From: Limisphaerales bacterium
GTDB taxonomy: Bacteria; Verrucomicrobiota; Verrucomicrobiia; Limisphaerales; AAA164-E04
NCBI GenBank assembly: GCA_965227305.1
Contig: OZ245740.1
Span: 1,747,371-1,811,370, forward strand
Length of the DNA stretch: 64,000 nt
Direction: 5' to 3'
The translations under genes were made by a program, and so were the position numbers. The notes below the pieces were generated by a model. The model saw only the letters and a list, made by a program, of their open reading frames with translations, did no database searches and was not told the origin of the DNA. Positions 12,971 to 59,400 of this stretch are shown here, piece by piece. The first letter of the stretch is position 1. Every line of letters starts with the position of its first letter.

Positions 12971-13025
12971 TTCCTGGCTGGCAGGTGCTTCGGGGCTGTG
13001 GTTTTTTGGGGCGTCTTTCTTGCCC

Positions 13026-13053
13026 AACGGCTCGCGGGTACGCTCGCCCTACC
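13026..13053 (-). repeat. REP-like intergenic repeat unit
   Basis: It is identical to 135-162. It lies between the SUI1 gene and the true start of the PSCyt/DUF1553 gene. Confidence 0.8.
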
Positions 13054-13100
13054 GGGTGGCTTGCCACGTTGCGGTTGGGGAGTTACGCTCTTCTCATCCT

Positions 13101-15557: not shown

Positions 15558-15569
15558 GAACACTGGCTT

Positions 15570-26413: not shown

Positions 26414-26416
26414 GAT

Positions 26417-32693: not shown

Positions 32694-32704
32694 AAACGCT
32701 TCCT

Positions 32705-36322: not shown

Positions 36323-39300
36323 GTGCTGGGGCAACTTCACGTCATGACGGAGGGCGGTTTGGATTCTCAACGGGACTCAGACGCGTCCTGGCGTCGACAG
36401 GTGTTGGATTTTGGTCGCGGACGAACTAGATCGGTCGATGGCGATTTGCCGTCTTTGTTCGAAGCGCAGGTGGAAAAAACACCCGATTCGGTAGCCCTCG
36501 TTACGGAGTCTGGCCCGGTTTCTTGGCGCACCTTGAACGAGCGCGCCAATCAGATCGCCCATGCCTTAGTCGCACGAGGGGTCGGTTCGGGGATGCTCGT
36601 TACGGTGGTATTAGAGCGTTCGGTCGATTGGGTGGCTGCTTTACTGGGCGTTATCAAAACTGGGGCGCCTTACCTGCCGATCGATCCCGCGAACCCGGTG
36701 GCAGATTTTGCGGCCATTGTGACGGAATCGGCGTCGGCTTTGGTTCTGACGCGGGCAGCCTACGAGCAGGAGTTCCCCGGAAGCGTAGACTGCCTGGTCT
36801 TGGATTCGCCCACAGTCCTGGCTGGGTTCGAGAGATTGCCACCCACCAACCTAACGGATCGGGAACGCCTTTCTGCGCTGGACCCGGATCATCCCGTGTC
36901 TGTGATCTTCACCTCCGGCTCCACTGGCGTGCCAAAAGGGGTTGAGGGGACGGTACGCAGTCTACTGAATCGCTTGGAATGGGGCTGGCGGGAGTTTGCC
37001 TTCACTAAAGGTGAGTATGGCTGCCTGAAGACGTCGCCGGGTTTCGTAGATCACTTGGCTGAACTGTGGGGTCCTTTGTTGCGGGGAGTCCCGCTGGTGA
37101 TTGTGCCGGATCAGGCCGTGAATGACTTGCGAGCGTTCGTCGAGCTGATCGCGCGCTATCCGATCCGTCGTATCCTTTTGGTCCCCTCGCAACTCCGTGG
37201 AATCCTTCGTTTGGAGGCGTCGGTGTTGAAAAAACTCGCTGAGGTGAAACACGTGTTCTGTAGTGGGGAAACGTTGTCGGTGGGGTTGACGCGCGCTTTC
37301 TTCGAGCTATTGCCTCATGCCACTCTATACAATGTCTATGGGGCGACAGAAGTGACTGCGGACTGCACTTGGCATCCCGTTTCGCAGCACGATGTCTTAA
37401 CGTATTTTCAGCCCCCGGCCGAAACCTCACCGGCCGGACATGAACTAGTTTCTTGGTACGAGGTTCCGCCCAGGGCAGAGATCACCGCGTCCCACACGGC
37501 TCTCACGGATTTGAATGAGCATTTTGGCAAGTCGGAAGTCCCCTTGGAGCCACTGTCGTTAAAGGCCTACAAACAACATTTGGCAAAGGATGTGATTCCT
37601 TACTCGGTGGATACCAACTCCGCCAAGTTTATGGGGCACATGACGTCTGCCTTGCCGAGCTTTATGCACGATTTCAACCAACTGATCACTCGGTTGAATC
37701 AGAATCTGGTCAAGGTGGAGACCTCAAAGTCACTCACCTTGCTGGAACGGGAAACTTTGGCCATGCTGCATGGAACCTTTTATCAGCGAGGGGACGCCTT
37801 CTATGACCAAGCCAGGAAGGATCCCGATACGGCACTCGGATTGTTTGTGTCCGGCGGCTCCTTGGCGAACTTGACCGCGTTGTGGTGTGCTCGAAATCGG
37901 GCGCTTCCGGCCAAGGAAGGCTTTGCCGGTGTGGCAGAGGAGGGCATGTTGGCGGCGCTCAAGCATCACGGGGCTGACAGTGCCGTCATCCTGGGCACGC
38001 GGTTGCTGCATTATTCCGTGCAAAAGTCGGCGAGCCTTCTGGGGCTCGGGAAGCAACAGGTCATAGCAGTCGGTCAAACACCAAACGGGGCGATGGATAT
38101 CGAAGACCTGAAGCGGCGTTTGCAGTACTGTGAAGACCACAATCTCTGCGTCTTGGCCGTGATCGGGATCGCTGGTGCGACCGAGACCGGGGCCATTGAT
38201 CCGTTGCCGGAGATTGCCGCGATAGCGAAAGCGAAGGGGATCCACTTTCATGTGGATGCTGCTTGGGGGGCGCCACTGTTTTTCTCGCAACGTTACCGAC
38301 ACCTGCTGAAAGGGATCGAACAGGCGGATTCGATTACTATGTGCGGTCACAAGCAGTTTTATCTGCCAATCGGCGTGAGTCTTTGCCTCTTTCGTGATGC
38401 TACCGTGCTCCACGCGATAGCGACTTCGGCTCGATACCAGGCTCGGGAAACCACATTTGACTCCGGGCGTTGGAGCCCCGAGGGAACCCGGCCCGCCACC
38501 TCGTTGTATTTCAATGCGGCGCTGAATCTCTTTGGGCGTCGGGGCTATGGCCAGCTCGTGGAACACGGGATGCGCAATGCCGAATACTTGGAGAAGCGCA
38601 TTCAGGAAGCGGAGGAGTTCGAACTGCTGGGAACTCGCCGTATCAATATACTGAACTTTCGCTACGTTCCGGTCGAGTTTCGAGGCCGGTCGAAGGCTGG
38701 AGACTTGACGGTTGAGGAAAATGCTCGGATTGACGAATTCAATATTCAGTTGCAAGAGCAGCAGTTTTTGGAAGGGCGCGGGTTTATTTCCCGGACCCGC
38801 GTCGGTTACCCAGACGCGTCGAGCGCCGTGGAAGTGGAATCCTTGCGGGCCGTCATGGCGAATCCGTTGACCAACCCGACAACGATCGATCAGGTGCTGA
38901 GGGATCAGTTGCGAATCGCTCAGCGTGAGTTTGAGAGCGAACGTGGGGAGGCCTGCGATTTGATGGCCGTTGAGACCGTTGTCTCTGCTGGTGACGAGGA
39001 GAATGAAGGGACAGGGCTCGATGAAGGAATCCCGATCGGAACGCCGCTCCCAAATTGCCAGATCTATGTCCTAGATGCTGAACAGGACCTGGTGCCGCCG
39101 GGAGAAATCGGCGAACTCTACGTAGCAGGTTTGGGATTGGCGCGGGGATATTGGAAGCAAGCGAATCGAACGGTTGAGAGTTTTGTTCCCGACCCATTTG
39201 TGACTGAGCCTGGGGCTCGGATGTATCGAACGGGAGATATGGGGCGATGGCGTCGTGATGGCGTGCTTGAGTTTCTGGGACGCGCGGATGACGAGGTGAA

Positions 39301-39589
39301 GATTGCTGGGTTTCGAGTGGAATTGGGTGAGGTGGAAACGGCCGTTGCCAAGCTTCCGGGTGTAGCACAAGCAGTCGTCATTGCGAAAAAAAGGACGGAT
39401 GGGGATGTCGCAATCCTTGCCTACGTAATCGCGACGCAGGAGCAGGATGGGATGGTTGAAGCCTGTCGGGCGCAGCTTGAGGCTACCCTCCCGTATTACA
39501 TGGTGCCGGAGCGTATTCGTGTGGTGGATCACTTTCCCGTAACGCTCAGCGGTAAGGTAGACCGGCGTGCGCTGTTGACGATGGTCTGA
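36323..39589 (+). CDS. Stand-alone adenylation (AMP-binding, NRPS A-type) domain interrupted by a PLP-dependent group II decarboxylase domain
   Basis: 1088-aa ORF with a GTG start (the first in-frame ATG is at 36344). A-domain motifs A1-A5 occupy the first ~350 aa (LGVIKTGAPYLPIDP, VIFTSGSTGVPKGV, GFVDHLAEL, NVYGATE). Decarboxylase hallmarks lie in the middle (GGSLANLTALW, HVDAAWGAP, MCGHKQF). A6-A10 are at the end (GELYVAGLGLARGYW, YRTGD, GRADDEVKIAGFRVELGEVE, LPYYMVP, LSGKVDRRAL). Confidence 0.8.
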   Translation: MLGQLHVMTEGGLDSQRDSDASWRRQVLDFGRGRTRSVDGDLPSLFEAQVEKTPDSVALVTESGPVSWRTLNERANQIAHALVARGVGSGMLVTVVLERSVDWVAALLGVIKTGAPYLPIDPANPVADFAAIVTESASALVLTRAAYEQEFPGSVDCLVLDSPTVLAGFERLPPTNLTDRERLSALDPDHPVSVIFTSGSTGVPKGVEGTVRSLLNRLEWGWREFAFTKGEYGCLKTSPGFVDHLAELWGPLLRGVPLVIVPDQAVNDLRAFVELIARYPIRRILLVPSQLRGILRLEASVLKKLAEVKHVFCSGETLSVGLTRAFFELLPHATLYNVYGATEVTADCTWHPVSQHDVLTYFQPPAETSPAGHELVSWYEVPPRAEITASHTALTDLNEHFGKSEVPLEPLSLKAYKQHLAKDVIPYSVDTNSAKFMGHMTSALPSFMHDFNQLITRLNQNLVKVETSKSLTLLERETLAMLHGTFYQRGDAFYDQARKDPDTALGLFVSGGSLANLTALWCARNRALPAKEGFAGVAEEGMLAALKHHGADSAVILGTRLLHYSVQKSASLLGLGKQQVIAVGQTPNGAMDIEDLKRRLQYCEDHNLCVLAVIGIAGATETGAIDPLPEIAAIAKAKGIHFHVDAAWGAPLFFSQRYRHLLKGIEQADSITMCGHKQFYLPIGVSLCLFRDATVLHAIATSARYQARETTFDSGRWSPEGTRPATSLYFNAALNLFGRRGYGQLVEHGMRNAEYLEKRIQEAEEFELLGTRRINILNFRYVPVEFRGRSKAGDLTVEENARIDEFNIQLQEQQFLEGRGFISRTRVGYPDASSAVEVESLRAVMANPLTNPTTIDQVLRDQLRIAQREFESERGEACDLMAVETVVSAGDEENEGTGLDEGIPIGTPLPNCQIYVLDAEQDLVPPGEIGELYVAGLGLARGYWKQANRTVESFVPDPFVTEPGARMYRTGDMGRWRRDGVLEFLGRADDEVKIAGFRVELGEVETAVAKLPGVAQAVVIAKKRTDGDVAILAYVIATQEQDGMVEACRAQLEATLPYYMVPERIRVVDHFPVTLSGKVDRRALLTMV

Positions 39590-39620: not shown

Positions 39621-39666
39621 GCGCTCCTTGGATGCAAGGTTCGCGAAACTTTTTGTCGTGTTTTTA
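39621..39666 (+). terminator. Candidate intrinsic terminator downstream of the A-domain/decarboxylase gene
   Basis: Imperfect hairpin gcgctCCTTG-gatg-CAAGGttcgcg (5 bp plus 3 bp with a 2-nt mismatch), followed by aaacTTTTTgtcgtgTTTTTa. It lies 32 nt after the stop codon. Confidence 0.35.
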
Positions 39667-39879: not shown

Positions 39880-42800
39880 GTGAAGCACCGGATATTGGCA
39901 TCAATGGATTTTGGCTGGGGACGTCATCTTCCCTTTGCGGCCCCGTTGCTCGTGAAACGATGCTTGGCATCATGGAGTTCCCTTGCGTTACTGGCCTTTC
40001 TTCTGAGTCCCAGCATCATTCTTGCACAGCCGGTTAATGTTCCTGCCTTTCTGAGTGACCTGGATGGAGACGCGCGGACTACCGTTCGCGACTTCGTGAT
40101 TCTTCAGAACCACCTCAGCGGAGACACTATTTTGCAGGAAGATCGGGTGTTCGCAGCCGATCTCAACCAAGATGGTGTGATTGATGGCCTTGATGCCGAT
40201 ATCTTACTCGATATTGTTATGGGTCGCCTACGCCCGCCGGCGACTCCGTTGGCCCGAGTGTTGACGACCTCACCGAAGGGCGGCGAGGACGGGGTCGCTT
40301 TAAGCAGGGAGACCATCGTAAGGCTGAGTTTGCCGCTGGCGGAAGATCTAGTCCTGCCGGACAATGCGATTCGTGCGGAGTTCGCCGGACAGGTGGTGCC
40401 AGGGCAACCCCATCTTAGTGCGGATCGACAAACGGTTACCCTGTTTTATCCAAGCGGTTTGCCGGCGTCGGCCCGTGTCCGGGTGACAATCGATGGCGGC
40501 TTGATGCGGGATTTACGAGGCTCACTCGTGGATGCTGATGGAGATGGCGTTCCCGGTGGAGAGCTGAGTGTCGATTTCGACACACTTACCGTCACCAGTC
40601 TTCCGGATACTTCGGTTTGCGGGCGCATTTTTGCTTCGGACCTGGCTGTTAGCGAGAACGGGAGCCGGTTCGTGAATCGTCCCTTAGCCGGTGTCACGAT
40701 TCGAGTCGATGGGACGGACCGGCTCGTGGTGACGGACGAAAATGGCAATTTCCGGTTGGAAGAGGCCCCGGCTGGAGAATTTTTCGTGCATATCGATGGC
40801 CGGACCGTCCCGGACGTCGTCCCTGCGGGCGCCTATTACCCCAATGTTGGCAAAGCTTGGGTATCTGTGCCCGGCATCGAAACCAACATCGGCGAGATTT
40901 ATCTGCCCCTGATTCCTGCGGATGCTTTGCGGGAGGCTTCGACGGAGTCGGACACGGTATTGGAATTCACGCCCGAGTTTGTGGTTCAGAATCCGAAATT
41001 CAACGGGGTCCAAGTCGTTGTGCCGCCGAATTCCTTGTTTCGTGATGATGGGACTCGCGGCGGGCGAGTGGGGATCGCACCCGTTCAGCCCGATCGGCTT
41101 CCCGGGGAGGTCGCAAGTGATCTTCCCATCCAAGATGTCGTGACCATTCAGACCGACGGGGCTACGAATTTTGATATTCCCGCACCGGTTTGCCTGCCCA
41201 ATCTGGAAGATCCGCTCACAGGCCGACGCTTGGGACCGGGAGAGCCAGCCGCGCTTTGGAGCTTTAACCATGACTTGGGACGTTTTGAGATCGTGGGATC
41301 CATGACCGTCAACGAAGACGGGAGCCTGATTTGCACGGATCCGGGGGTTGGCGTATTGGCGCCGGGCTGGCATGGCAGTAGCACGGGAACTCAGGGAGAG
41401 GGGGGAACCTTGCGTCATGTCATTCTCGATCGGAGCAAACAAGAGAAACCCGGGAAAAATGACCCTTCCGCTGATCCGGACAATAAGGTGACGATTCCCT
41501 GCCCGGACAATCCAAACCGGTATGTGAACCTTTACAAAAATCGCCGCCGTCCCCAGTCCAATCCCGAGGCTAAAGGCGGGGATCCGGTGTACCTGCACTC
41601 CGGAGAGTTTTATGAGAATATGGTGGATTTGCGGATTGCAGGGCGCGGTATGGACTTCATCTGGAGTCGCAAATATCGATCGGTAACGGGACGGCCAACC
41701 GTTCAGGGCAACAATTGGGACTATTCTTACAACATTTTCATTCGTGCCGAGGGGAATGATTTTCTCTTGTGTGACGGGAACTCCAGAGCGGATATCTACA
41801 CGTTGCAGGATTCCGGCGTTTGGACAGCTCCGGGCTTTTTCCGAACTCTCGAAGCGAATCGGGACGGGACTTATACCTTGCGATTTGAACACGGCGGGCG
41901 GTGGGTGTTTCACCCCGTGGACGGGCGCCCGGAGTCCGGCCGGATTCTCATCAGCGAGGAGCGGAACGGGAATCAATTGCGGTTCCGATATGACTCCCAA
42001 GGACGGCTCTCCGGAATCGTGGACTCGCTGGATCGTTTGATTGAAGTGTTCTACAACGGGGACGGATTCATTCGCGAGGTGCGTGACTTTGCGGGACGAT
42101 CGATTCGTTATGAGTATTTCGGTCGAAACGATCCAGACGGCAATTTTGGCGATCTTCGATCCGTGACCTTGCCGAGCGTCACGGGAACGCCCAACGGGAA
42201 CGATTTCCCAGACGGTAAAACAACGACCTTCACCTACTCAACCGGACACTCAGATGCCCGATTGAATGGGAACCTCCTCACGATCACCGACGGGAGGCGC
42301 AACGATCCGAATGACCCCGCCTTTGAGCAAGGTCCGTATCTGCGCAATGAATACGCGCCGACAATCGACCCGGAAGATGTCAACTTCGATCGGATCATTC
42401 GACAGGTTTGGGGCGATCCGGATGATATTCTCGACTATCACTACACGGCGCTATTGCCGTCGAACGCCAATCGCAGGGCGGTTAACAAGACCATCGTGAA
42501 CGATCGTCGCGGATTGGTGATGGAATACCTCTATGATGAGGCGAATCGGCTCGTTAGTTATCGAGAATTCACCGGGTTTGCCGTTCCGGATCAAGTCACA
42601 ACGGAAACCGACAATCGGCCTACTGGAAAACTCAGAGCCACCGATCCCGACTTTTTTGAAACCGTACACGAGTGGAACGCGGATCACTTACTAGTGCGAA
42701 CGATTCAGCCGAACGGTACGATCATCGAAAAAGTCTATGAAGGGGATATCAACCCCAATGCTGGCCCGCGAACCCGGTCCAATCTGGTTGCAACGCGCTT

Positions 42801-45800
42801 GCTTCCCGGGAGCCATCGACCGGCAGGGGATCAAGTGGTCATCGAGGAATTCTACGAATATGACACCGCGTTCGCGGGCTGCTGTGGTTTCAATTTCGTC
42901 ACGAAGTATACCGATGCTCGGGGGAATACTACCACGCACGACTACGATGAACGAGGTAACCGGATCCAGACTATCCATCGGGTGCCTTCCATCATTCATC
43001 GGTATGAGTATAACGAGTTTGGTCAGCTCTCCGCCGAGGTCTATCCGGACAACGACGGCGTTCGCCGGCGAGACGAGTGGGCCTACTATGAGGAAGGTCC
43101 TCAACGCGGATACCTGCGTCAGATAACTCGGGACGTGGATGGTTTCGCGCTGACCACGGTCATGGACTACGATCGCGTGGGCAATCCCGTCGCGACAACG
43201 GACGCCAAAGGCAATACCCAAGAGTTCGTGTTTAACCAACTGGATCAAATGGTGCGTGAGATCTCACGGCCGGTATCAGCGACCCTAAACGTCCGCTATG
43301 TTCAGGATTACTTTTACGATGCGAACAACAACTTGATTCGAGTGGATGCGCCCAATGTCGACCACCTTGGGGATGTCGGTAGCAATGCTTCATACACCAC
43401 GACCTATGAATACGAGATCTTGAACAATCTCATTCGAACGGCGCAGGAGATACGCGAGGGTGAGTTCCGAGTAACCGAGACTGTATACGACGCGAATCGG
43501 AATCGAATCTTGATGCGGTACGGCGAGGCGACCAACGGCAACCAAACCGACAATACGACGAGCTGGGATTTCGATGAGCGTGACTTGGTGATCCGTCTGA
43601 TTCAAGGGAAGGGAGGAGCGGATCAATCGAGCTTTGAGTTCGACTACGATCCGAACGAAAACCTGATTGTGGAGCGGTATGGAATCGAGGACGCCAAGCC
43701 TCAAATCACGTCTCGAATTTTTGATGGCTACGATCGGCCCGTGGATGTCACGGATCCGATGGGGAATCGAACCACCTACGAATACGACGCGAATCACAAT
43801 CTCGTGCGACACGTGAAGTATGGGGAACTGAATGATCAGCCGGGTAGTGCCGGCAATGTGAAACTGTTTGCGGAAAATGCGAGCTATGATCCGTTAAACC
43901 GTCTGACCCGGACGGATACCGAATTCTTTGAAGTTGGGACCGGACGGCCATTGGGCGACGGACTTTCGACCATGCAGTATCGGTATAACAACAGTAGTCT
44001 GTTGGTGGCGACGATCGACGATAATGGGAACCGCACGGTACGAGACTATGATTCGTACTACCGACCTCGCCGGGTCGTCGACGCACTTGGTAACGAGGTG
44101 ATCTATGACTATGATCAACTGTCAAATGTTGTCCGGGTGACAGAGAGAGACCTGCCCGACTCCGGAGGTGAGGCAGAGGTTTATGTGGAACGATTCGATT
44201 TCGATCATCTGAACCGTGTGATTCGGTCCATCGATTCAATTGGTAATACTTCGGAGCTCGGCTACGACTCCCGGAATAACTTGACCTACAGGAGCGATGC
44301 GAACCGCGTTACCCCGAACCAACCAGGGAATATCGTTCGCAATGAGTTTGATGGTCTCCGGCGCCATATAGCCACGGTGTATGAACTAACAGCCGATGGC
44401 CAAGGCGGCACGCCCACTGGGACCATCCGGACCGAAACCGTATTTGATCACTCAGATAGAGCCGTCGGCCGCATTGACGGAAATGGCAATCAAACGACCT
44501 ATACCTTTGATGGGCTTAATCGAATGACGGGAACGAGGTTTGCGGATGGGACGACAGAAGAGCGGACCTACAACGCGCATTCGAATCCGATCATGTGGGT
44601 CGATGCGAATGGCACTACGATCGCGACTGAGTATGACGAGCTGAATCGCAAACGACGATGCGAAATCACACCCGGTGCTGGGGTGTCGAGCGATACGACG
44701 TTTGAAGTTTTCGATTTTGACGGATTTAGCCGACTGCGTCGGTTTGCGGATGATGATTCTTTGGTTGAGAGAGAATACACGTCTATGTCAGAGATTCTTC
44801 GAGAATCGTTAAATGATGTCGTTACCTCGGCCGAATATGACGGTATGGGGAATATGCTACGGTGTGTGTACCCGTCGGGCTTTGAAACGCTCATGTCCTA
44901 TGACGGGATCAATCGCCTGACTCGTATAGATGACCGTCTTGGATTGATCGCCGATCCGAGCTACGTGGGGCGCCATCGTACGAAGCAGTGCGTGCTGGGG
45001 AACGACACCGTCACCTCTCATGAGTATGATAGGGATCGGCGTCGAATCGGTATCGAGCACCGAATGCCGGGAAGCGGGGTGTTTGACCAACGACGCTTCG
45101 CTTGGGATAGCATGGACAATAAAATCCTGCACCGTGACGAATTGTCGGGAGAGAGCCTCGAGTTTGCCTACGATTCTGTCTACCGATTGACGTCAAGTGG
45201 GCTTAGTGATACGCGGCAGGCCTATCACTATGATTCTGTTGGGAATCGCACGCGAGTTGATGGCGGGGCGTTTTCCGGAAGGTATGAACTGGATGCGGCA
45301 GTTGACGGTCCGGCAGATCGGCAAGTAAATCAGTACACCGTCACTCCGTCTGGGATTCGCCGCTACGATGCCAAGGGCAATTTACTGACAGTGGGCGATG
45401 CGCAAGAATCTTTCACTTACGACTATCGCAATCAGTTGGTTGCCTTTGCGAATCCAAGCCTGGGGCAAAAGAGCACCTATCGATACGATGCTTTAGGGCG
45501 CCGGATTGAGCGCAGTTTTGGCTCAGGACAGACGGTTAAGTACTACTATCAAGGGTCCCGAGTCCTTGAGGAGCGTGATGCGGCCGGTCGCATGAATCGT
45601 CAGTATGTGTATGGCCGTTACATTGACGAGGTGGTTAACATGCGGACGGATCAGGAGAGTTTCTACTATCATAGCGACGACACCTTCAACGTTCGTAAAA
45701 TAACGGATAGTAGTGGGGCCGTGGTTGAAAGCTATGACTATGATGATTTCGGCATGCCTGTTGTTGCCAATGGTGAGGGACTATCGGTAGGTGAATCTCA

Positions 45801-46551
45801 AATTGGGAATACCTTGTTGTTTAATGGGCGGCGATTTGATGTTGAGACGGGGTTCTATTTTTACCGATCTCGCTACCTTGACCCACGGGTCGGCCGGTTC
45901 ACAAGTCGAGACTATATCGGCACATGGGGAGATCTTGGTAACATGGGGAACGCGTTTTCCTTCGTAGCGAATAATCCGAGGACCTTGCTGGATCCAACCG
46001 GAATGGAGCCACTCGACGGCGAACGGCGGCCGTGGGATAAAGATACGCCTACGGGAACGCAGGGGCACTTTCATTGGCGGCCGTTGCATGGTGAGGTAGA
46101 GAATGGGTGGGTAGAGTGGACCACGCGGAGTGCAGGTTGGTGGTTCAGCGGCTTACCTGAGGAGGTTAAGATGAATTGGATTTACGCCCATGAACACTAC
46201 TTTGAGGGCACCTACGATGAATCGAAGCCGAGGGATGGCCACATTGGTTTTGGCGGGGAAGACCCCGAGTATCTATCGGAATACAACGAGCAGAGTCCGG
46301 GCTCATATTCGGATGATGTCATGCGGGCGGCGCGGGACATGATTGATAAGGACTTTACCGACGGGAGCTATGGGATTCCCTTCCATAATTGCCAGCTTTA
46401 TGCTGACGAATTGCGAAGGTGGTATGACTTGTTCTTGAAGGCTGTTTGTGAAGAATCGTCCACGAGCTTATCGAAGAAAGACAGGTGGTTTATCCGAGAG
46501 CTTTGGGTGAGTCGGTTTGGTGACGTCGACATCGTTAGTGAAAAGGAGTAG
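39880..46551 (+). CDS. RHS/YD-repeat polymorphic toxin with Sec signal, N-terminal dockerin-like module, Ig/carboxypeptidase-regulatory-like domains, RHS core and a divergent 181-aa C-terminal domain
   Basis: 2223-aa ORF with a GTG start. Hydrophobic leader [18 protein letters not shown]. Dockerin-like paired Ca loops ([20 protein letters not shown] / [20 protein letters not shown]). VCGRIF...[10 protein letters not shown]...TDENGNFRL (CarboxypepD_reg-like). Dozens of YD repeats (..YDANGN.., ..Y.YD..). RHS-associated core [33 protein letters not shown]...[31 protein letters not shown], ending in LLDPTGM. Confidence 0.9.
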
Positions 46552-49198
46552 GACAATTAAGAGGCGGAGTGGCTACTGTTGGTTTGCCCTGTTGGCATGC
46601 CTTGCTCCGCTGTGTTTGTTGGCTCAGGACGGTAGTGTGGTTCAATCCGGTCTTCACTACTTCGGCGTTCAAAACCGAGCTACAGGAGAATTTGTCCAAC
46701 GGGGTGAGGCTGGCGCCAACGGCGTAGCTTTCGATCGATTGATTCTACCGGCGGAGCAGAGTTTTCGCATTTGGGTGCTCCAAGGTGAGACCTTCTTCTT
46801 GGGCTATGTGGATGTGACAACCCCTCCCAACGGCCAACGGTGGCAGGTGCCACCGATTGATCTGGGACAGTCGATAGCCGGTGATCGGGATGGGGATGGC
46901 TTGCCGGACGATGCCGAGCTGGTGCTTGGAACGTCGCCGAACGATTCGGATTCGGATGGCGATGGCGTCTCCGATAGCGCTGAAGTAAGGCAGGGATCAG
47001 ATCCGCTGGATGGCACGCCGACGCGGACGGGAATCCTCGGGACCGCCGACACTCCGGGCACCGCAGTGGATGTGTGCGCATTTAATGATCTCGTCGTGAT
47101 TGCAGACTCCGCTCGTGGGGTGGCTGTTTTCAACGTTTTTAACGGGATGAGCCCACTCATCGTCGCGCAAGTGGAGACGCCGGGCACGGCCCGTTCTGTG
47201 GCACTGGCGGATCAACTGATTGCGGTGGCCGATGGTGAAAGCGGTCTCGCCGTGATCGATATTACAGATCCGCCAGCGGCGAGGATTGTCCAGCAAGTGC
47301 CGTTTTCATCCAATGCCTTTTCGGTTGCGTCCGATGGAGAGATCGGGTTAGTCGGCCTGGAATCCGGGTTATTGGTAGCGGTCGATCTCCGAAGTGGGGG
47401 GGTATTGAGTCAACTCCAACTGGGAACCCGGCTCGTGGAGGATGTCGTTTTGTCTGGGGACCACGTGTTCGCCTTGTACCAGGGGAACCTCGGCGTTCTG
47501 CGGATGGTTGATGGGGCGCTGGAGGTGGTGTCATCGGTGGTGTTGCCGGACTACGCGATTATTGGACATGATCGCGGACGACTTTTTGTAGGGGGCGGTG
47601 TGGCTTATCCCGTGAATTCCCGAGGGTATCAGACGGTCGATATCTCCAGCCCGGCAGAGCCAACGCTGATCGCAACGGGGCGGACGTCTCAGGTGGGATG
47701 GAAGCAGATTGTGTTGAATGGTTCCGGTTTGGGACTGGCGGCTGTGGGAGTGAATCCCAGGCTGGATGCCACGGCCCATGTCTCTCTATACGACGTGTCG
47801 AATCCAAGCGACAATGATGTTTTTCTGACACAGTTTGAGACGCCGGGGTTTGCTCGCGCCGTGTCGATTTACAATGGCATTGGCTATGTCGCTGATCATG
47901 CTTCGGGATTGCAGGTTGTGAACTATCGGGCTTTTGATTCCCAAGGAGTAGCGCCAGAGATTGCGATCACCACGAGCCTTGAGGGCAGTCAAGCGGAGGA
48001 AGGGAAACGGTTTCGGATCACCGCTGACGTGAGTGATGATGTGCAGGTAAGGAACGTCGAGTTTTACGTCGATAGCGTGCGGGTTGCGACGGATGGTAAT
48101 TTTCCTTTTGAAGTGCGTGTTCCGGCGCCGTTGATTGTCAACCAGAACCGCTTTACCGTTCGGGCCCGTGCGAGTGATACGGGTGGTAATGCGACATTCT
48201 CGGAGAGCCTGACCTTTGATTTGATCGAGGACGCAACACAGCCGCGCTTGGTCCGAACTTTTCCGGAACGTGGGTCGGCACTTGGATCTGTGAATCGGGT
48301 CAGTGCGACGTTTTCGGAACCGATGGCTGTGAGTTCCTTTACTGCTTCTACGTTCGAACTGGTAAATGCGGGGCCGGACGGTGTCCTCAATTCCGGAGAT
48401 GAGCTTTTGATCCAGGGCGGGATGATTCGCTATTCGGATGTCTCCAATACGGCCATACTTCAATTCGAACAGGTATTGGAAGCCGGTCTCTATCAGGCAA
48501 GATTGGCTCAAACGATTACGGACCGATCAGGACTTCCTTTGCGCAATCCGGAACAATTCTCCTTCCGAGTGTTTGGGATGGCGGATGGGGATAACGATGG
48601 CGTTCCCGATGAGCTTGAAGTGACTTTGGGATTGGACCCCTTGAATCGGGACACCGATGGGGACGGGGTTCTGGATGGTGATGAAGACTTTGATGAAGAC
48701 AATTTGCCGAACGTGGGCGAAGTGCTCTTGGAAACGAATCCGGCCTTAGCGGATACGGACCGTGACGGGATTCTTGACGGCGATGAAGACTCGGACGGGG
48801 ATCTGCTGACGGACGGTCGGGAGATATTGCTTCGCACGAATCCCCGCATGGTGGACACAGACATGGATTCCTGGCCGGACAACGACGAGGTTGAATCCGG
48901 CGGCGACCCCTTGGATCCTCGTGTGATTCCGCCAATTCTGATTGTCGCCGCCCCTCCAACGACAACGGTGTTACCCGGAATCGGGAATACTGAGTTTGCT
49001 GTGGGGCTTGTGGTGGCCGCGCCTCCGATTTCTGCCGTAATTCCCGGTGTTGATATCGAAGCGAGTATTGGCGTTGGGGTGACGGTGGCCCGGCCGCCCG
49101 TGTCGGCCGTGTTACCTGCCGTAGGGCCGGTAGCGGGTATCGACTTTGGTATTACGGTCGCGGATCCGCCCGTGCGGGTCCAATTGAATTCTCAGTAG
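46517..49198 (+). CDS. Secreted LVIVD-repeat beta-propeller protein with thrombospondin type-3-like Ca-binding repeats, Ig-like domains and a C-terminal ~24-aa tandem repeat
   Basis: 893-aa ORF that overlaps the RHS 3' end. The likely start is GTG at 46538, giving [37 protein letters not shown]-type motifs: [48 protein letters not shown]-x-D-x-DG-x-x-D runs occur at ~46.87-47.0 kb and ~48.58-48.9 kb. Confidence 0.7.
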
Positions 49199-49200
49199 CG

Positions 49201-50460
49201 TTGACGAGTATGATGACAAACTTACCTGACTCTTTAAAATGGATGCAATGTCTCGGGCGGCATCGATTGAACCGGGGTGCGATTACGCACGTTGGGCTCG
49301 TGGCGGTGTTGTTCCTAGCAACCCCTCTCTATGCGCAATTCAGCTCAGGGAGCGATGGCTCCGACGGTGCCTTGGCGGTCACGGGGAACCGGGTTCTGGA
49401 TCTCCCGGATGACGGCCGATTCAACTTTACCACCGTAACGATTGAGGAGGGAGCCACACTCAGTTTCAATCCGAATCCGAAGAACACTCCCGTATACGTG
49501 TTGGCGAGTGGTTCGATCATCGTTAACGGAACGGTACATGTAAACGGAGGGACGGGGGATTCGGTCAATGGGGGTGTCGGTGGTCCCGGAGGTTATGGTG
49601 GCGGACAACCCGGGTTCAACGAACTCCCGCCTGGGGCGGGATTAGGGCCGGGTGGCGGGCTGGGAGGGGCCCCAAATCGAGATGGCGCTGGGCCTGGGGC
49701 TTACTTGAACGCCGGAAATAATACGCGCGACGAGAATCTCCAGCAGGGAGTCCCCTACGGTACGCCTCTGTTGGTTCCAATGGTTGGCGGCTCCGGCGGT
49801 GGAGGGACGGCTGGATCCCCTGGTGTTGGTGGTGGGGGCGGGGGCGGCGCTCTGTTGATGGCTTCGGATGAATCAATCACGGTTGGCCAGATGGGACGGA
49901 TTGAAGCGCGTGGCGGTTCAGATGGGGATAGTAATGACTTCTTTGCACCAAAACACGGTGGGAGCGGCGGGGCCGTCCGGTTGGTTGCGCCCTTGATCCA
50001 GGGAACGGGACAGGTCAATGTGGAAGCTTTCATAAGGGGTTTTGCCGGGGATGGGCGGATCCGGATTGATGCGGTGGATCGCCGCCAGTTCAACTTGGAA
50101 TTGGTCCCGGCGCGCTCCGTGTCCGTGGGCGTATTGATGGCGGTTGATCCCGGTGTGTTGCCGCGGTTGGACATTCTCCAGGTAGCGGATCAAGTGATTC
50201 CCGAAGGTTCGGTGCCTCCCGAGACATTTATTTTACCGATCGGTTCGCCTGCTGAGCAGATCGTTCGGGTGCAGGCTCGCGATTTTCGGGGATTGATACC
50301 GATCCTGGTTCGGTTGATTCCAGAGAATGGGGTTCCCGTCGACTTTGAAGGAACGATCGATATGGCGACGGGCAATCCGGCCACGACGGACGTGGCTGTC
50401 ACGCTTCCTTTGAATACGGGAGTTCGTGTGCAGGTGTGGACTCGGGATGCCGAGGAGTAG
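49201..50460 (+). CDS. Secreted glycine-rich protein of unknown function (beta-helix-like N-terminal part)
   Basis: 419-aa ORF that starts 2 nt after the upstream stop (TTG at 49201, or ATG at 49210). Signal helix VGLVAVLFLATPLYAQ. Gly runs: GGVGGPGGYGGGQPG, GGSGGGGTAGSPGVGGGGGGGA, HGGSGGAVRL. Confidence 0.6.
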   Translation: MTSMMTNLPDSLKWMQCLGRHRLNRGAITHVGLVAVLFLATPLYAQFSSGSDGSDGALAVTGNRVLDLPDDGRFNFTTVTIEEGATLSFNPNPKNTPVYVLASGSIIVNGTVHVNGGTGDSVNGGVGGPGGYGGGQPGFNELPPGAGLGPGGGLGGAPNRDGAGPGAYLNAGNNTRDENLQQGVPYGTPLLVPMVGGSGGGGTAGSPGVGGGGGGGALLMASDESITVGQMGRIEARGGSDGDSNDFFAPKHGGSGGAVRLVAPLIQGTGQVNVEAFIRGFAGDGRIRIDAVDRRQFNLELVPARSVSVGVLMAVDPGVLPRLDILQVADQVIPEGSVPPETFILPIGSPAEQIVRVQARDFRGLIPILVRLIPENGVPVDFEGTIDMATGNPATTDVAVTLPLNTGVRVQVWTRDAEE

Positions 50461-50463
50461 GGG

Positions 50464-52302
50464 GTGGCGTATGGACGGGATTCCGACTCAATGAACCGCG
50501 CACGGGAAAGTAATCTTCTCGCCGCAGCCTGCCATCTGGGAGCGGTTGTGTTAACCCTATTGGGTGTTGGTGTCCCGTCGGTAAGGGCTGCCACGATCTT
50601 GGACGTGGGGGAAGCGGTTGCGCCCAAGGGGGCGACGGTCGTGGTGGATATGGTGCTGACTTCAGACCAAAATGTCGCAGCCCTGCAGTTTGACTTGTTG
50701 TACGACAATCGTCGACTGACTACCGAGTCTACCCGTTTGAGTCAGGCCCAAACACGGCACACGGTTGATTCTCGGGATGTGGCTCCGGGGCGCCTTCGGG
50801 TCGCGGTTTATCCGTCAGCGAATGCAGTTCTGGCGGATGGTCCTTTGGTTTCGTTGCCCTTCGTTATCGCACCGAATGTTGGTTCTGGGGAACTCCCGTT
50901 GACCCTGGATGTCGCTCAAGTTGTTTTCTCGACAGTCGCGGGGCAATCGATCTCGGCAGATGAGCTTTTGAATGGGGCGATAACCGTTGATGAAACTGTT
51001 GGTGTTTTTCGAATTGCCGGTCGGGTTCATTATTTTGGCGGTGGGAACGAACCGTTGCCGGAGATCCGCCTGCGTCTACTCGGAGCGGACACCATTGGGA
51101 CCGATACGGATGCCGAAGGCCGATTCGAGCTATTGGCCAACGGAGGCAATGACTATCGGTTGGAGGCGGTGGCGCCCGGGATCCGTCTCGCGCCCGAATC
51201 CGGCGTAGACGTGGGAGATCTCGTGGCATTGCGTAAACATCTACTCGGTTTCGGCGATATCGATTCCCCCTTTGGCGCATTGGCGGGGGATGTCGATGGG
51301 GATCGAGCCCTCACCGAATTGGACGTGGAGCGAGTTCGGGGAATGCTTCTAGGCGAAGCGACAACGCTGCAGGGTTCGGTGGGCGTGGCCGGTGAGTCCC
51401 TCTTCTTCTTGCCGTCGGACCTAAGTTTTGTAGACCGTCGGGATCCGTGGGGTGCTCTTGGGGCAGCCAACGCGAACGCGGTCCGGCGAATCTCCGGACT
51501 GGGGAACGCACGATTCGGTGAAGATTTCGCCGGAATCAAATTGGGAGATGTCAACGGAGACTGGCGGTCCGTGGGCACAGAGTTGCCTCTGGAAACCCCA
51601 AGCTCTGGCTTTGGATCCGTTGAACTGCGTCTGAGATCGGGCTACGGGGTGCCGGGCGGAGAGATCCGTCTGCCGCTGTTTGCGGAAAGTTCGGATCCCT
51701 TGCTTGGTCTCCAATTTGATCTTGGCTGGGACCCATCCGTGTTGCAGTTCGATCGGTTTGAAAATGTGCGTCTACCTGGGTTTGACCCCGCGATTCACAC
51801 TGCCGAGGGGGCGGAACGAGACCAAGTGCGTGTGGTGTGGGCGGACCCAATTGCTTTAGGTCTTCAAATCGGGAGTGCGGAGCCGGTGTTGGAACTGGTG
51901 TTCCAGGCGGTAGCGGATGCGGAACTCGGGGCGGCCTCGCGCGTTGATTTCTTGGGTGGATCAACTCAAGTGTTGGGTTACGGTTTTGACGGCCGACAGG
52001 ATATGCAGGCCCAGGACGCGATTGTGGTTTTGGCGGCTGCGCCTGACTTCGACAATATCGTGTCGGTTGGTGATGCGGTTCTAACTCGCTTCGTCCCGGG
52101 TGAGACACTGGAGCTCTGGGCATTCGCGGAAGATGGCCGCACCTACATTCTTGAGACGACCCTGTCCTTTAGTGATCCCAATTGGGAAGAAATCGCTCAA
52201 GCCGTAGCTGCCGATGGTCTCGTCGAGTTTTCCGTAGCGGCAGATGCCGCTTTCCAGCGTTACTTTCGACTGCTCGAATTAGCGGCGGAAAACAATCCAT
52301 GA
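50464..52302 (+). CDS. Secreted protein with two cohesin-like domains, a carboxypeptidase-regulatory-like domain and a dockerin-like segment (scaffoldin-like)
   Basis: 612-aa ORF (GTG at 50464, or ATG at 50491) with a signal peptide. Cohesin-like blocks: GATVVVDMVLTSDQNVAALQFDLLYDNRRL... and GGEIRLPLFAESSDPLLGLQFDLGWDPSVLQF... Dockerin-like segment: DLVALRKHLLG...GDVDGDRALTELDVERVRGMLLG. Confidence 0.7.
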   Translation: MAYGRDSDSMNRARESNLLAAACHLGAVVLTLLGVGVPSVRAATILDVGEAVAPKGATVVVDMVLTSDQNVAALQFDLLYDNRRLTTESTRLSQAQTRHTVDSRDVAPGRLRVAVYPSANAVLADGPLVSLPFVIAPNVGSGELPLTLDVAQVVFSTVAGQSISADELLNGAITVDETVGVFRIAGRVHYFGGGNEPLPEIRLRLLGADTIGTDTDAEGRFELLANGGNDYRLEAVAPGIRLAPESGVDVGDLVALRKHLLGFGDIDSPFGALAGDVDGDRALTELDVERVRGMLLGEATTLQGSVGVAGESLFFLPSDLSFVDRRDPWGALGAANANAVRRISGLGNARFGEDFAGIKLGDVNGDWRSVGTELPLETPSSGFGSVELRLRSGYGVPGGEIRLPLFAESSDPLLGLQFDLGWDPSVLQFDRFENVRLPGFDPAIHTAEGAERDQVRVVWADPIALGLQIGSAEPVLELVFQAVADAELGAASRVDFLGGSTQVLGYGFDGRQDMQAQDAIVVLAAAPDFDNIVSVGDAVLTRFVPGETLELWAFAEDGRTYILETTLSFSDPNWEEIAQAVAADGLVEFSVAADAAFQRYFRLLELAAENNP

Positions 52303-52362
52303 GAATTCCGAGTGTGTCGGCAAGAACTTTCCTCTGAGCGGAAAATGCAACAGCATCCTTGG

Positions 52363-52397
52363 TTTCCCCTTACGGGAAATGTTTGTGTGACGTTTTT
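52363..52397 (+). terminator. Weak candidate terminator after the cohesin gene
   Basis: TTTCCC-cttac-GGGAAA hairpin (6 bp) followed by the T-rich tract tgtttgtgtgacgttttt. Confidence 0.25.
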
Positions 52398-52410: not shown

Positions 52411-52932
52411 TTGTTTTTGATGAATCGCAAGACGAGGGACATTCTTAGCGAGCTTGAGAGTTATCTCTGGTTTTCGAATGTGGGAAACCGTTCGGAAGTG
52501 GGAGACGTTACTTTTGTTGATTCGTGGGGAGCGGCAGTCGCGAGTTGTGCGAGCCGTAAGTGGGAAGACTTTCAACAAGATATCCACAATTACTACATCA
52601 GAAAAGTAGGGGCCCATATCCACGAGGGCGCGGAACGTTGGAACGCCGTCTTGAGTGAGGTGGAGAGTCGGCTGGCGGTGCATGCATTTCCCGTTGTGGA
52701 AAAGATGGCGTCAAATCTCGAATTGCCTCAGGTCTTCGTTGATTCGGTCAGGTGGGACGTGCTTGGTATTTGTATGGAAGTGGAATTCTCGGATATCACA
52801 CCGCCATTTTTTTTCGCGGCAATTGTGAGGGAGTGCTACCGGTCTGGGCATTTTCCCTGCGGTTGGGATGGCCCCGATTTGCCTGACGGATGGTGCGGGA
52901 ACCTCAGCTTGGGCAAGCTGATTGTCTATTGA
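52411..52932 (+). CDS. Hypothetical cytoplasmic protein (candidate immunity-type protein by context only)
   Basis: 173-aa ORF; the likely ATG is at 52420 (MNRKTRDIL). No signal peptide. C-terminal GHFPCGWDGPDLPDGW motif. It sits in a visibly AT-richer stretch downstream of the RHS operon. I recognise no family. Confidence 0.5.
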   Translation: MFLMNRKTRDILSELESYLWFSNVGNRSEVGDVTFVDSWGAAVASCASRKWEDFQQDIHNYYIRKVGAHIHEGAERWNAVLSEVESRLAVHAFPVVEKMASNLELPQVFVDSVRWDVLGICMEVEFSDITPPFFFAAIVRECYRSGHFPCGWDGPDLPDGWCGNLSLGKLIVY

Positions 52933-56358: not shown

Positions 56359-56482
56359 CCAGTGGTTTCATACACAGAGGGGTCACCACAAGGGGTGAGA
56401 TTCCGCAGATGCTGTTTGTGGGCACTCGCCAATAGTGGGGATTACGGGAAGGGGGCGTTCTTGGCATTCTTTTGGCTAAGGG

Positions 56483-59400
56483 ATGAGAGAGAACGGCAGA
56501 TCTTCTTTGTTGCTATCCGCTTGGCGACCCTGGTTGCTCGGATGGCTTTTACTTCATGTGTGTCGGGTCGATTGTGAGGCTCAGGGATTCCACATTAGCT
56601 TCGTCGACAACGATCGAATCGTGCTGAACCATACCTTGGGGAACGATGCCAGACTGAAAATCGTGAGGGTGTCGGGATCCGAGGGCGAACGGGATTTCGC
56701 GGGACTGCCAAGCCCCATAACGGATCTCGAAGTGACTCAAGGGGAAACCTATGAGTATCAACTCTTCGTCTTTGACCCAATCTTGGAGGAGTTTGTGGGG
56801 TCGGGAGGTCCGCAGTCGGCAACGGTGGGTGAGGTGCGAGGGCTTCTGCCTCACGATTTGACCTGGGCTGCTGATCGCGTTCTGTTTGATGACGTGGTCG
56901 TGCCGGAAACGGCTACGTTGACAATTCGAGGCGCGGCGCCAGATCAGCGCGTGTCGATTCAGAATGCTCCCAATACGCGGCTGGTTCAGTTGAACTTCAT
57001 GGGTAAGCTGGAAGCCGAGAATGTGACCTTTCGGAGTCTGGATCGGGTGAATTCGGCTGTCAGTCTTTTGGGACGGTCTGGAGTGCCCTTCACTCCCGAG
57101 GCGATCAAATCGACACTCGTATTTCGGAACGTTAACTTGGAAGACGTCGATTTGGACGCAGCCAACAACCCAACTCTGGAGAACGTCAATGACGGAGGTT
57201 CCACGGCGAGTCGAATGCGGTTGTTCAATCTAGAGAATTTCCTCTTCAAAAACTCGGGAGAGCTTTCCCATACCACCGTTGAGTTTCATCTCCTGTCGGG
57301 AAGTTTGGAGATCAAAGATTCACGGTTCTCGAATGTGGTGGTCATGCCAGCGGAGTTCAATAGCCAGACCGAAGATCCCAAGATCGACGGACGCGTCATC
57401 TTTAGTGGGAATACACTGACGTCCACGCGGAATCCCGTGAGTGACTTTTTGAATTTCGGGACCACGGGGATTATTGAAATTCTGAATAACCGCAAAGACC
57501 CAAACGGCGTTCCCTACGAACTGGAACTGGAGTTTTTTGCTTCGCCTCCGGGTTTGACGGATTTGTTTCGAGAGATTTCGGGCAATACCGGTGTTTCGAA
57601 TCTGTTTTTGAATCAAGTCAGCAACACGGAGGTTCGGATGAATACGATCAACACGCCCCAGAACCAAGGAACGGCTGGAATTACCGTGAACGGGAACCAC
57701 AACCGAGTTGTAAACAATACGGTTGCCAAAGATTTCGACCTGTTCGCTTCTGAGTTTTCTGCCGGTATTCACGTTAACGGGAATCCGGCAACCGGGAACC
57801 GGATTGAAGGGAACACCGTGACAGAATACGGGACGGGGATTCTCTTGGCCCGGGCGGTGGATAACGTCATTCGGGACAACGATCTCGACGGTAATAATAA
57901 CGGTATCTTCCTCAATGGCACGGGCGTCAATATCCCCGAGGGGAACCAGATCTTCAACAACCGGATCGTCAATACCCTCTTCAGTAGCGTGCGATTGGGC
58001 GAGGATTGCTTCACGGGATGTCCGAACTCCTGGAATGCCGAACGTATGGCGGGTAGTAATATTCTGGGGGGACCGTTTATCGGAGGGAATTTCTACGGCG
58101 ATTTCTTTGGAGCAGTGGATACGGATTCCCCGCCGGATGGCCTGAGCAATGTGTCCCGAATGCACAATGCCGTGAACGTGGATAATCTGCCCTTGATGCC
58201 ACCGCAGGCGGATCTCCAAGTCAATGTGTTGAATCCGCCCACTCAGGTTGCGCCGGGAGGTTTGCTCTCGTTCTCATTTGAGGTGGTGAATCTGGGACCG
58301 AGTGTTTTGGGGGATCCAATCTCGCTGGATATCTTCGGGTTGAATCTGGCGACGGATCAGTTTGCAACCCCCGTGGACCCCAGTGCGGGTGCCGACTTCT
58401 GTAGTCTCAATCTGTCGGCGATCAACTGCAACCTCGCCAGCGGCCTGGGTGTGGGGGAGATGCGGACGGGTACGGTGTCTTTTCGGATCAGTCCGGATGT
58501 GTTGACGAATCTCGGTCCGGATGGATTGCAGTTTGGTTTCTTCCTCTCCACTCAGGCCCCGGTGAGCGACCCCGACAACTCAGATAATTCTCGGACGGTG
58601 CGAGTGGATGTGTTGGAGGATATCGATGGTGACGGTTTATCGACATCGATCGAGGAGATGGCGGCGGCGGCCTTGGGGGATAGCGACGTCAATTCGAACG
58701 GCATCGCGGATCATGAGGATCCTTCCGCGGCTCTATTCCTTGACCGGGATGGCAACGCCATTGCGATGCACTTCGGGAGTAACCCGGGGAGGTTTAACAA
58801 TGTAGTGCCCAAAAGTACCAGCACCTTTCTGCCTCCGATACAGTTCGATCCGATCGCAGACGGTGCCTTGGGATTTGCGGATGTTCAGATCGATTTGGGA
58901 CCGGGGGCTCCGATGGCAGGTACGACTTTGGAATACCGATTTTCTGAGACCCTCATGCCGAATGTGGCAGATGCCGTCGTTGTGGAATCCCTCCCGGCTG
59001 GCACACCCGTCGTGATTCCAGTGCGCAGATCCCTTCCGGGCCTCGTTGAACTTGAAGTCCAGGATGGTGGCCCGGGGGACAATAGTGGGCCGGGAGATGG
59101 CATCATTGATCTTTCGAACCTAGCGGTTTATCGCGAGCGGAAGGCCAATCTCGTGCTCAGTGGTCCCGCCGTCGTTGCCAACTCCGTTCCCGGACCCGAT
59201 GGAACGCCGCATATTGGTTCTTTTGATCACAAAAACGCCTTTGAGTTGGAATTGGTCTTGGAGAACACAGGAGAGTTACCGGCCGAAAATGTCGAAGTGA
59301 CTGTTGCGATTGAGGATACCGTGAACGGTCTGGTGAAGCCGTTGGTTCCTTCCCAAGTTGACGGGGCGGTGTCCGGAAGCGGCGTGGACGGACTGACCTG

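Follow-up and report, generated by a model that had tools for sequence, protein, structure and literature searches.

In a stretch of 64,000 nucleotides (nt) from a Limisphaerales bacterium (Verrucomicrobiota; contig OZ245740.1, positions 1,747,371 to 1,811,370), which is referred to here as the window, ORF (open reading frame) calls and translations identify four same-strand genes at 39880-52302 (+), termed g1 to g4, that abut or overlap one another. We consider it moderately probable that they form an operon-like cassette for an extracellular, toxin-presenting complex that is held together by cohesin-dockerin binding. This reading is carried by the modules found in g1 and g4, by the conservation of the four genes in relatives, and by the co-occurrence of cohesin and dockerin across related loci.

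Re-reading of the ORFs bears out the tight packing and the junction coordinates that had been claimed in an earlier note on this DNA. g1 and g2 overlap by 35 nt or 14 nt with the TTG and GTG starts of g2, respectively, 3 nt lie between the g2 stop and the g3 start, and g3 is followed by g4 after 4 nt, or after 31 nt if g4 begins at ATG 50491, which is its likely start (the database version of the protein, of 584 amino acids (aa), also has a later start). Sec signal peptides can be read from the sequence at the N-termini of all four proteins, including g2 and g3, which the earlier note had likewise held to be secreted. Its proposed flanking terminators did not hold up: a scan has no site at 39621-39666 and only a weak one at 52362-52380, and because terminator-like sites in the region are at chance level (14 observed, 15.5 expected), terminators were discarded as operon evidence.

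g1 exceeds the thresholds for Dockerin_1 (31.6 bits, threshold 22.9; Pfam), RHS_repeat (162.5 bits; Pfam) and the RHS-associated core TIGR03696 (54 bits, threshold 32.5; aa 1966-2042), with TIGR01643 at 114 bits (NCBIfam), and is thus a Sec-signal RHS protein with an N-terminal dockerin, as had been proposed. Both Ca loops of the dockerin are seen in the translation (DLDGD... and DLNQDG...). An autocleavage motif of the DPxG[LM] type is present (...GRFTSRD...LLDPTGM, with the junction at aa 2038), and the PDB sequence matches of g1 are the Rhs shells 8h8a, 7q97, Tse15 and Tse5. The prospective partner of the dockerin is g4, which matches PDB cohesins (6kg8 and 6kgc). Its first cohesin is above the Pfam threshold, so that profile searches recover both modules of the proposed pair, and its second, detected with jackhmmer, aligns to the cohesin family with a probability of 90.4% and an E of 1.4e-6 (hhalign). 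The two cohesins claimed for g4 therefore stand, on Pfam, jackhmmer and hhalign results, while the dockerin also claimed for it is marginal, with a sub-threshold 19 bits. This segment has weak matches to PDB dockerins (4uyq_B and 5nrk_B, E ~0.01), and the dockerin profile matches its orthologue at locus L001 at 1.7e-5 (labels with L or P denote individual loci). The architecture of two cohesins plus a dockerin is confined to the nearest relatives of the window, and in most relatives the corresponding protein is a simple one of 230-400 aa with a single cohesin. The case for self-polymerisation of the scaffold is weak because it would depend on a sub-threshold dockerin found only in the closest relatives.

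Table 1. Coordinates of the cassette genes, their modules and the PAP2/VCPO_2nd-like genes beside related cassettes (window positions unless a locus is named)
Feature	Position	Strand	Details
g1	39880..46551	+	2223 aa; stop TAG 46549-46551; predicted Sec-signal, dockerin-tagged RHS polymorphic toxin
g1 dockerin	40054..40206	+	aa 59-109, right behind predicted signal peptide (aa ~1-49)
g1 core module	40225..41394	+	aa 116-505; Big_5, CarboxypepD_reg-like and further beta-sandwiches
g1 DUF6531 plug, YD-repeat shell, RHS core	41578..46005	+	plug aa 567-637; core aa 1966-2042
g1 C-terminal payload	45991..46548	+	aa 2038-2223, ~185 aa
g2	46517..49198	+	start TTG 46517 or GTG 46538; stop 49196-49198
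g3	49201..50460	+	start TTG 49201 (or ATG 49210); stop 50458-50460; 419 aa
g4	50464..52302	+	612 aa from GTG 50464; scaffoldin-like
g4 cohesin 1	50602..50988	+	aa 47-175; Pfam Cohesin 33.8 bits, threshold 24.1
g4 dockerin-like segment	51205..51351	+	aa 248-296; second Ca loop intact (DVDGDRALTELD), first degenerate
g4 cohesin 2	51625..51945	+	aa ~388-494; reciprocal jackhmmer
g4 C-terminal tail	52096..52299	+	~65 aa; Y.[IL]E......W.......F.......RY[FY]R
PAP2/VCPO_2nd-like copy	L006 8649-10004
PAP2/VCPO_2nd-like copy	L155 8754-10004
PAP2/VCPO_2nd-like copy	L090 571-1821
PAP2/VCPO_2nd-like copy	L154 19193-20488
PAP2/VCPO_2nd-like copy	L069 1834-3678	-
PAP2/VCPO_2nd-like copy	L081 17653-19179	-
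PAP2/VCPO_2nd-like copy	P0023 locus

The four-gene order is kept in independent metagenome and metagenome-assembled genome contigs at 38-78% identity. Homologues of g4 are few in a word-indexed protein search, and the contigs that encode them share the four genes and their order. L001 and L002 encode an RHS protein of 2250 aa, followed by an LVIVD protein of 903 aa, a protein of 405 aa and a cohesin protein of 590 aa, with identities of 63-78% for g1, 62% for g2, 62% for g3 and 28-45% for g4; taken by parts, g4 gives 28-49% in tblastn. L004 has the last three cassette genes at its contig start, and the four-gene order is also present in L020, L069 and L073. Synteny in relatives, to which the earlier note had pointed as a check, is thus conserved across these loci. 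The cassette is a genuine feature, and there is an appreciable possibility that it represents a new system for delivery or presentation.

Comparisons with the N-terminal part of g1 place the cassette in a wider context. With the first 600 aa as the query, more than 160 proteins were found at 41-64% identity in Planctomycetota, Verrucomicrobiota, Kiritimatiellae, Poribacteria, Omnitrophota and Anaerolineae. These proteins have g1 aa ~116-505 (~385 aa) in common, a region that is termed the core module here, and approximately half of these protein matches have a dockerin directly N-terminal to it. In a scan of one genome per GTDB species, the core module was found at at least 535 loci (45-73% identity), often several per genome, in Verrucomicrobiota, Planctomycetota, Acidobacteriota, Chloroflexota (Caldilineaceae), Poribacteria, Omnitrophota, Sumerlaeia and others. 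The Acidobacteriota include a cultured carrier, Acanthopleuribacter pedis KCTC 12899, whose cassette (L063) consists of a dockerin-less RHS gene and g2. The module ends in a near-invariant CTDPGVG..APGWHG, and the regions behind it diverge, including RHS/DUF6531, phospholipase A2 (PLA2; PF06951/PF09056), Peptidase_M15_3, HH_signal (hedgehog-like), TSP3 and PKD, among others. An AlphaFold2 (AF2) model (pLDDT 91.4) is an all-beta string of beta-sandwich domains. Foldseek did not point to a function, as it returned generic Ig-like strings only (TM ~0.2; S-layer proteins, scaffoldin and pilins), and because these matches are generic Ig-like arrays, the module looks like a stalk rather than an enzyme.

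The accessory genes accompany the core module to different extents. Using jackhmmer on all ORFs of 88 core-module loci, a g2-type propeller was found in 69, g3 in 23 and a cohesin in 14, and these counts are lower bounds, since many loci are cut by contig ends. Each of the 69 loci has its propeller either in the gene that follows or, as a fusion, in the core-module protein itself, and two layouts can be distinguished. In type A, an optional dockerin, the core module, the RHS region and a C-terminal domain are followed by g2, g3 and an optional cohesin gene. In type B, an optional dockerin, the core module and a variable region are fused to a complete g2-like TSP3/LVIVD/Big_7/Big_5 region, giving products of 1500-3600 aa, often with g3 next. 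Other payloads also have accessory genes; for instance, L006 encodes a dockerin-core-Peptidase_M15_3 protein followed by g2, two copies of g3 and a cohesin, and further cases are L081, L088, L090 and L154. Judged from these comparisons, the window cassette belongs to a very large family, consisting of the core module and g2 with or without g3, that has polymorphic payloads; RHS is one payload of many in this family, and the cohesin-dockerin pair is an optional add-on to it. The earlier note had not recognised this wider family.

The distribution of the two halves of the pair was compared. Loci were scored if the core-protein N-terminus was complete and the flanks were long enough. Dockerin and cohesin are both present in eleven (the window, L006, L007, L012, L020, L040, L069, L073, L081, L088 and L090) and both absent from five (L044, L062, L067, L080 and L085), and neither occurs without the other, giving a table of 11/0/0/5 (Fisher p = 2.3e-4). 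Three loci chosen independently from protein hits follow the same pattern: L154 has a dockerin, and an unannotated 391-aa gene directly upstream encodes a cohesin homologue (3.3e-30), while both modules are missing from L156 and L157. The combined table is 12/0/0/7 (p ~2e-5, by our own arithmetic), although both p-values overstate the evidence because the loci are phylogenetically non-independent. None of 10 dockerin-less N-termini reaches a dockerin score in Pfam. The cohesins of L012, L081, L007 and L073 are above the Pfam threshold, and those of L040, L088 and L154 are recognised by the family profile only.

The dockerin state is scattered on a neighbour-joining tree of the core module, with at least 8 changes for 15 positives. 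Additionally, the cohesin gene is located either behind g3 or immediately upstream of the toxin gene, and thus the cohesin-dockerin link is not a single inherited arrangement. The scattered state, the differing payloads (RHS, M15 and fused g2) and the two cohesin positions together favour a functional pair over one inherited block. Short of experiments, no stronger evidence for real pairing is to be had than this perfect co-occurrence across cassettes that differ in payload and gene order. The central idea of the earlier note, that a paired cohesin and dockerin serve an RHS toxin, is supported by the comparative evidence. The g1 dockerin would accordingly be expected to bind the g4 cohesin(s) in a Ca-dependent manner.

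Two further arrangements were seen at the N-termini of core proteins and next to them. Dockerin-less core N-termini in L062 (9536-9997), L080 (9533-9994) and L085 (9473-9991) have two D.D.DG-type Ca loops that are 27-29 residues apart; such N-termini are not recognised as dockerin by Pfam, that of L015 scores as TSP3, and they may represent an alternative N-terminal tag. In the Poribacteria loci L011 (8206-9630) and L018 (631-2103), a gene 5' of the core gene encodes a protein that joins Dockerin_1 (38 and 26.7 bits) to a weak cohesin and has a C-terminus of the FlgD_ig/Por_Secre_tail-like kind, and the core protein itself is without a dockerin. Here the modules are the same, but their wiring differs.

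The domain order of g2 is TSP3, LVIVD beta-propeller, Big_7, Big_5 and TSP3, and TSP3_bac, LVIVD, Big_7 and Big_5 are all above the Pfam thresholds, in agreement with the propeller and TSP3 repeats first read from the letters. Its C-terminus (48899-49195) has approximately four tandem ~24-aa repeats of the form G.T[IV]A.PPV..VLPG.G, followed by PPV.V.[IL]..Q; these belong to no known family, and are kept in g2 proteins encoded by separate genes and absent from the fused type. Because g2 is fused to the core protein in type B, it is likely to work physically with the core-module protein.

g3 has no match in Pfam and NCBIfam scans and none in PDB at E<1e-3, yet it belongs to a large family (2412, 1577 and 297 cluster representatives at E<=1e-3, 1e-10 and 1e-30, respectively), of which nearly all members are 360-430 aa. 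Its AF2 model (pLDDT 88) has a helix at aa 26-39, in the signal peptide region, a Gly-rich, beta-solenoid-like body (aa ~58-300) and a C-terminal beta-sandwich (aa ~320-415). In many loci, a g3 gene is next to a g2 gene or a core gene. Further full cassettes, in L090, L092 and L099, came from a metagenome scan that used g3 as its seed. In L100, L110, L118, L119, L123, L128, L132 and L139, a YD-repeat fragment is followed by a longer g3-like gene (450-550 aa) and a giant core/RHS protein, and in L101, L103, L116, L122 and L137 the g3-like gene is instead upstream of giant Ig-rich proteins.

In the mechanism proposed for the cassette, g1 to g4 would be exported by Sec, and the g1 dockerin would dock on the g4 cohesin(s) in the presence of Ca, as the strict co-occurrence of the two modules suggests. 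The beta-sandwich stalk, together with g2 and g3, would present the RHS cocoon outside the cell, and the cocoon would enclose the ~185-aa payload, a C-terminal enzyme that would be cleaved and released on target contact. Gene fusion and neighbourhood point to g2, with its propeller and Ig domains, as working with the core module, and to the beta-helix-like g3 as a further structural subunit. More speculatively, g4 might hold the complex at the surface of the producer through its C-terminal tail, and with two cohesins and a degenerate dockerin it might carry two toxins per scaffold or form scaffold chains. We infer an extracellular location and target for the complex and, more weakly, surface anchoring and self-polymerisation.

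Cohesin proteins of the family share a C-terminal consensus, ...Y.I.AS..L..W.......F.D......RFYR, which spans ~65 aa, has no Pfam family, and recurs at the C-terminus of otherwise unrelated secreted PAP2 and LRR proteins encoded in these loci, which makes it a candidate domain for sorting or anchoring. No Pfam domain of a known scaffoldin anchor (SLH or sortase motif) is present in g4. An alternative reading is that the cassette encodes a released, soluble multi-subunit holotoxin, loosely Tc (ABC)-like, in which cohesin-dockerin binding would serve subunit assembly only and would not tether the toxin to its producer. Such a holotoxin would explain why neither g4 nor its single-cohesin homologues have a recognised anchor module, a beta-propeller combined with RHS is also the established TcB/TcC combination, and the co-occurrence that supports pairing is silent on location. 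However, neither a TcA-like pore-forming subunit nor any helical or membrane-inserting component was found, and the conserved tail, being common to unrelated secreted proteins, looks like a sorting or retention signal and not like part of a toxin. We regard a released holotoxin as unlikely.

A PAP2/VCPO_2nd-like gene recurs beside cassettes, mostly dockerin-bearing ones (Table 1), and frequently shares 4 nt with the start of the toxin gene. The RFYR tail of the cohesin proteins is also found at the end of some copies. The gene is absent from the window.

RHS C-terminal domains differ between otherwise orthologous cassettes, with at least 7 unrelated sequences among complete cassettes, and the type found in the window recurs in only four other loci (L001, L009, L017 and L020). 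Two motifs are invariant among the five aligned orthologues (HEHYF ... NNCQ.Y.D.LR). PF05903 Peptidase_C97 (PPPDE) is matched weakly by 4 of the 5 copies, with a best E of 0.0014, and the window copy is unmatched. The g1 payload thus weakly resembles a PPPDE-like permuted papain-fold Cys peptidase, which is a lead rather than an assignment. The payload has no sequence relative in PDB, and a protein search with the payload alignment matched nothing. This search, like the one with the first 600 aa of g1, returned no protein longer than ~1050 aa and missed even g1 and the orthologue that is 78% identical to it, so that its negatives carry no information for proteins of RHS size.

An immunity gene would be expected behind an RHS toxin, but in 14 of 15 complete type A cassettes g2 overlaps the RHS stop or lies at most 44 nt behind it, and thus there is no adjacent immunity gene. 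Because none follows the toxin, the target is probably not kin bacteria, with eukaryotic grazers or hosts, or unrelated bacteria, as the likelier candidates. The substrates of PPPDE enzymes are ubiquitin-like modifiers. The PPPDE-like signal and payloads such as PLA2 similarly suggest targets that are non-kin and possibly eukaryotic.

The same lack of immunity genes could also indicate that no toxin is involved, and that the cassette displays surface enzymes or adhesins, in a 'planctosome'- or teneurin-like manner, for nutrient acquisition, attachment or cell-cell recognition, with the RHS shell being structural or adhesive. A cohesin-dockerin peptidase complex has been hypothesised for freshwater Planctomycetes (PMC6461901). 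The TTR-like domain, plug, propeller and YD shell parallel the established teneurin superfold, TSP3 and Ig domains are typical of adhesins, and type B relatives are without RHS and have their variable region mid-protein. Nevertheless, g1 retains the RHS-associated core with the DPxG cleavage motif, the C-terminal tip is variable between otherwise orthologous cassettes, which is a hallmark of polymorphic toxins, and other payloads in the family are lytic enzymes (PLA2 and LAS peptidases), so that a non-toxin display appears improbable. Finally, dockerins are common in PVC (Planctomycetes-Verrucomicrobia-Chlamydiae) genomes and other dockerin proteins are encoded near some cassettes (L004 10654-11586 and L005 16534-18591), but it is very improbable that the cassette's cohesin and dockerin are non-cognate, with partners elsewhere in the genome and a co-inherited mobile block behind their co-occurrence, given the 12/0/0/7 distribution, the repeated state changes, the two cohesin positions and the differing payloads, as a passive hitch-hiker is expected to decouple at least once.

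Several observations weigh against a cohesin-held, toxin-presenting complex as well. Co-occurrence is not binding, and the loci from which it was scored are not independent of one another. The internal dockerin of g4, with an E of 0.0017, falls short of the Pfam threshold of 22.9 bits. The cassette is without an outer-membrane translocator, an SLH, sortase, lipobox or PEP-CTERM anchor, or a secretion ATPase. The assignment of the payload as a toxin is weak, since PF05903 reaches no better than E 0.0014 in the relatives and does not match the window copy. The type B 'payload' is located mid-protein, unlike the usual polymorphic-toxin layout, and a missing immunity gene 3' of the toxin is atypical for bacterial RHS toxins.

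The genes that surround the cassette were also inspected. Upstream, 36323-39589 (+) encodes a 1088-aa fusion of an AMP-binding (adenylation) enzyme and a PLP-dependent decarboxylase/aminotransferase-like domain, which is probably unrelated to the cassette. Further upstream, three sets of PSCyt/PSD genes (DUF1549/DUF1553, DUF1592 and others) with DUF1501 or DUF1552 partners are located at 12894-16976, 25046-29692 and 31245-35641; PSCyt/PSD/DUF1501 genes are typical of Planctomycetota/Verrucomicrobiota (PVC-type) genomes. Just 3' of g4, an ORF of 173 aa (52411-52932, +) has no Pfam family, and it is unlikely to be an immunity gene because it is not conserved 3' of the cassette in L001. A giant ORF of more than 2506 aa (56480-64000, +) begins 4 kb downstream of the cassette and continues past the end of the window; it has a signal-like N-terminus, NosD-type beta-helix, Big_9, cadherin-like and LRR domains, and neither dockerin nor cohesin, and is probably a giant adhesin.

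To our knowledge, what is understood of RHS and other polymorphic toxins comes almost solely from delivery by type VI secretion (T6SS), contact-dependent inhibition (CDI), type VII secretion (T7SS) and Tc toxins in Proteobacteria and Firmicutes. The cassette offers a testable idea for toxin deployment in abundant environmental phyla, those of the PVC superphylum (Planctomycetota, Verrucomicrobiota and relatives), Acidobacteriota and Chloroflexota, namely a toxin that is docked by cohesin and dockerin. The roles of non-cellulosomal cohesin-dockerin pairs are mostly unknown, and such pairs would gain a defined function if the idea is correct. The missing immunity genes hint at targets outside the producer's own kind. 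Additionally, three uncharacterised families, the ~385-aa core module, the g2 propeller and the Gly-rich g3, travel with hundreds of payload-swapping proteins. A broader and more tentative possibility is that the core module together with g2 and g3, to which cohesin-dockerin would be a plug-in, constitutes an unrecognised, phylum-spanning apparatus that presents or delivers polymorphic toxins and lytic enzymes independently of type V secretion (T5SS), T6SS, T7SS and Tc. Verrucomicrobiota, Planctomycetota, Acidobacteriota, Chloroflexota and others would direct it at eukaryotic grazers or foreign bacteria, and the cassette in the window would be its RHS-armed, cohesin-anchored version.

In comparison to known systems, the cassette combines familiar parts in a different arrangement. 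A literature search found no paper that links dockerin or cohesin with RHS, DUF6531 or LVIVD cassettes, or that describes the cassette, the core module or g3. A 2026 survey has one sentence in which cohesin and dockerin are listed among domains associated with PT-TG toxins. T6SS Rhs effectors (8h8a, 7q97, Tse15 and Tse5) share the YD shell, RHS core, DPxG motif and DUF6531 plug with g1, but the cassette has a signal peptide and a dockerin in place of PAAR, VgrG and an Eag chaperone. Family scans of the window ORFs found no PAAR, VgrG, T6SS or CdiB family, as the earlier note had stated, and a T6SS reading was rejected because neither the window nor the related loci have PAAR, VgrG, Eag chaperone or T6SS genes. 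The Tc BC subcomplex and teneurins are similar in having a propeller, a plug, a TTR/CarboxypepD_reg-like domain and a YD cocoon that encapsulates a C-terminal domain, whereas the propeller of the cassette is of the LVIVD type and on a separate polypeptide, g2, and is fused C-terminally, without a shell, in relatives. A Tc-toxin reading was likewise rejected, as there is no TcA-like translocation pore; the products of g2, g3 and g4 are all-beta and of the Ig, propeller or solenoid kind.

With cellulosomes, as built on the scaffoldins of Clostridia, the cassette shares a Pfam cohesin, a type-I-like dockerin with two Ca loops, and a multi-cohesin scaffold with its own dockerin-like module. It differs from them in its cargo, which is an RHS or other polymorphic toxin and not CAZymes (carbohydrate-active enzymes), peptidases or an RTX protein, in its N-terminal dockerin, in having no SLH or sortase anchor, and in that the pair is embedded with g2 and g3. 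Non-cellulosomal cohesin-dockerin complexes have been proposed for planctomycete peptidases (the 'planctosome'; PMC6461901) and for Cag_2037/2038 of Chlorochromatium, with an RTX-like protein (bioRxiv 10.64898/2026.03.19.712371). As in the cassette, adjacent genes encode the two partners.

WapA of Bacillus subtilis is a Sec-exported, wall-associated RHS toxin of contact-dependent inhibition, with an N-terminal retention module, a YD/RHS shell and a polymorphic C-terminal toxin. The cassette similarly has a Sec signal instead of T6SS/PAAR/VgrG components, an N-terminal module, a YD shell and a variable tip. The two differ in that WapA has cell-wall-binding repeats where dockerin-cohesin retention is proposed for the cassette, and in that the host of the cassette is a diderm, no WapI-like immunity gene is present, and three dedicated accessory genes are. 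By analogy, therefore, the cassette would work most like WapA, with a protein-protein dock replacing wall binding.

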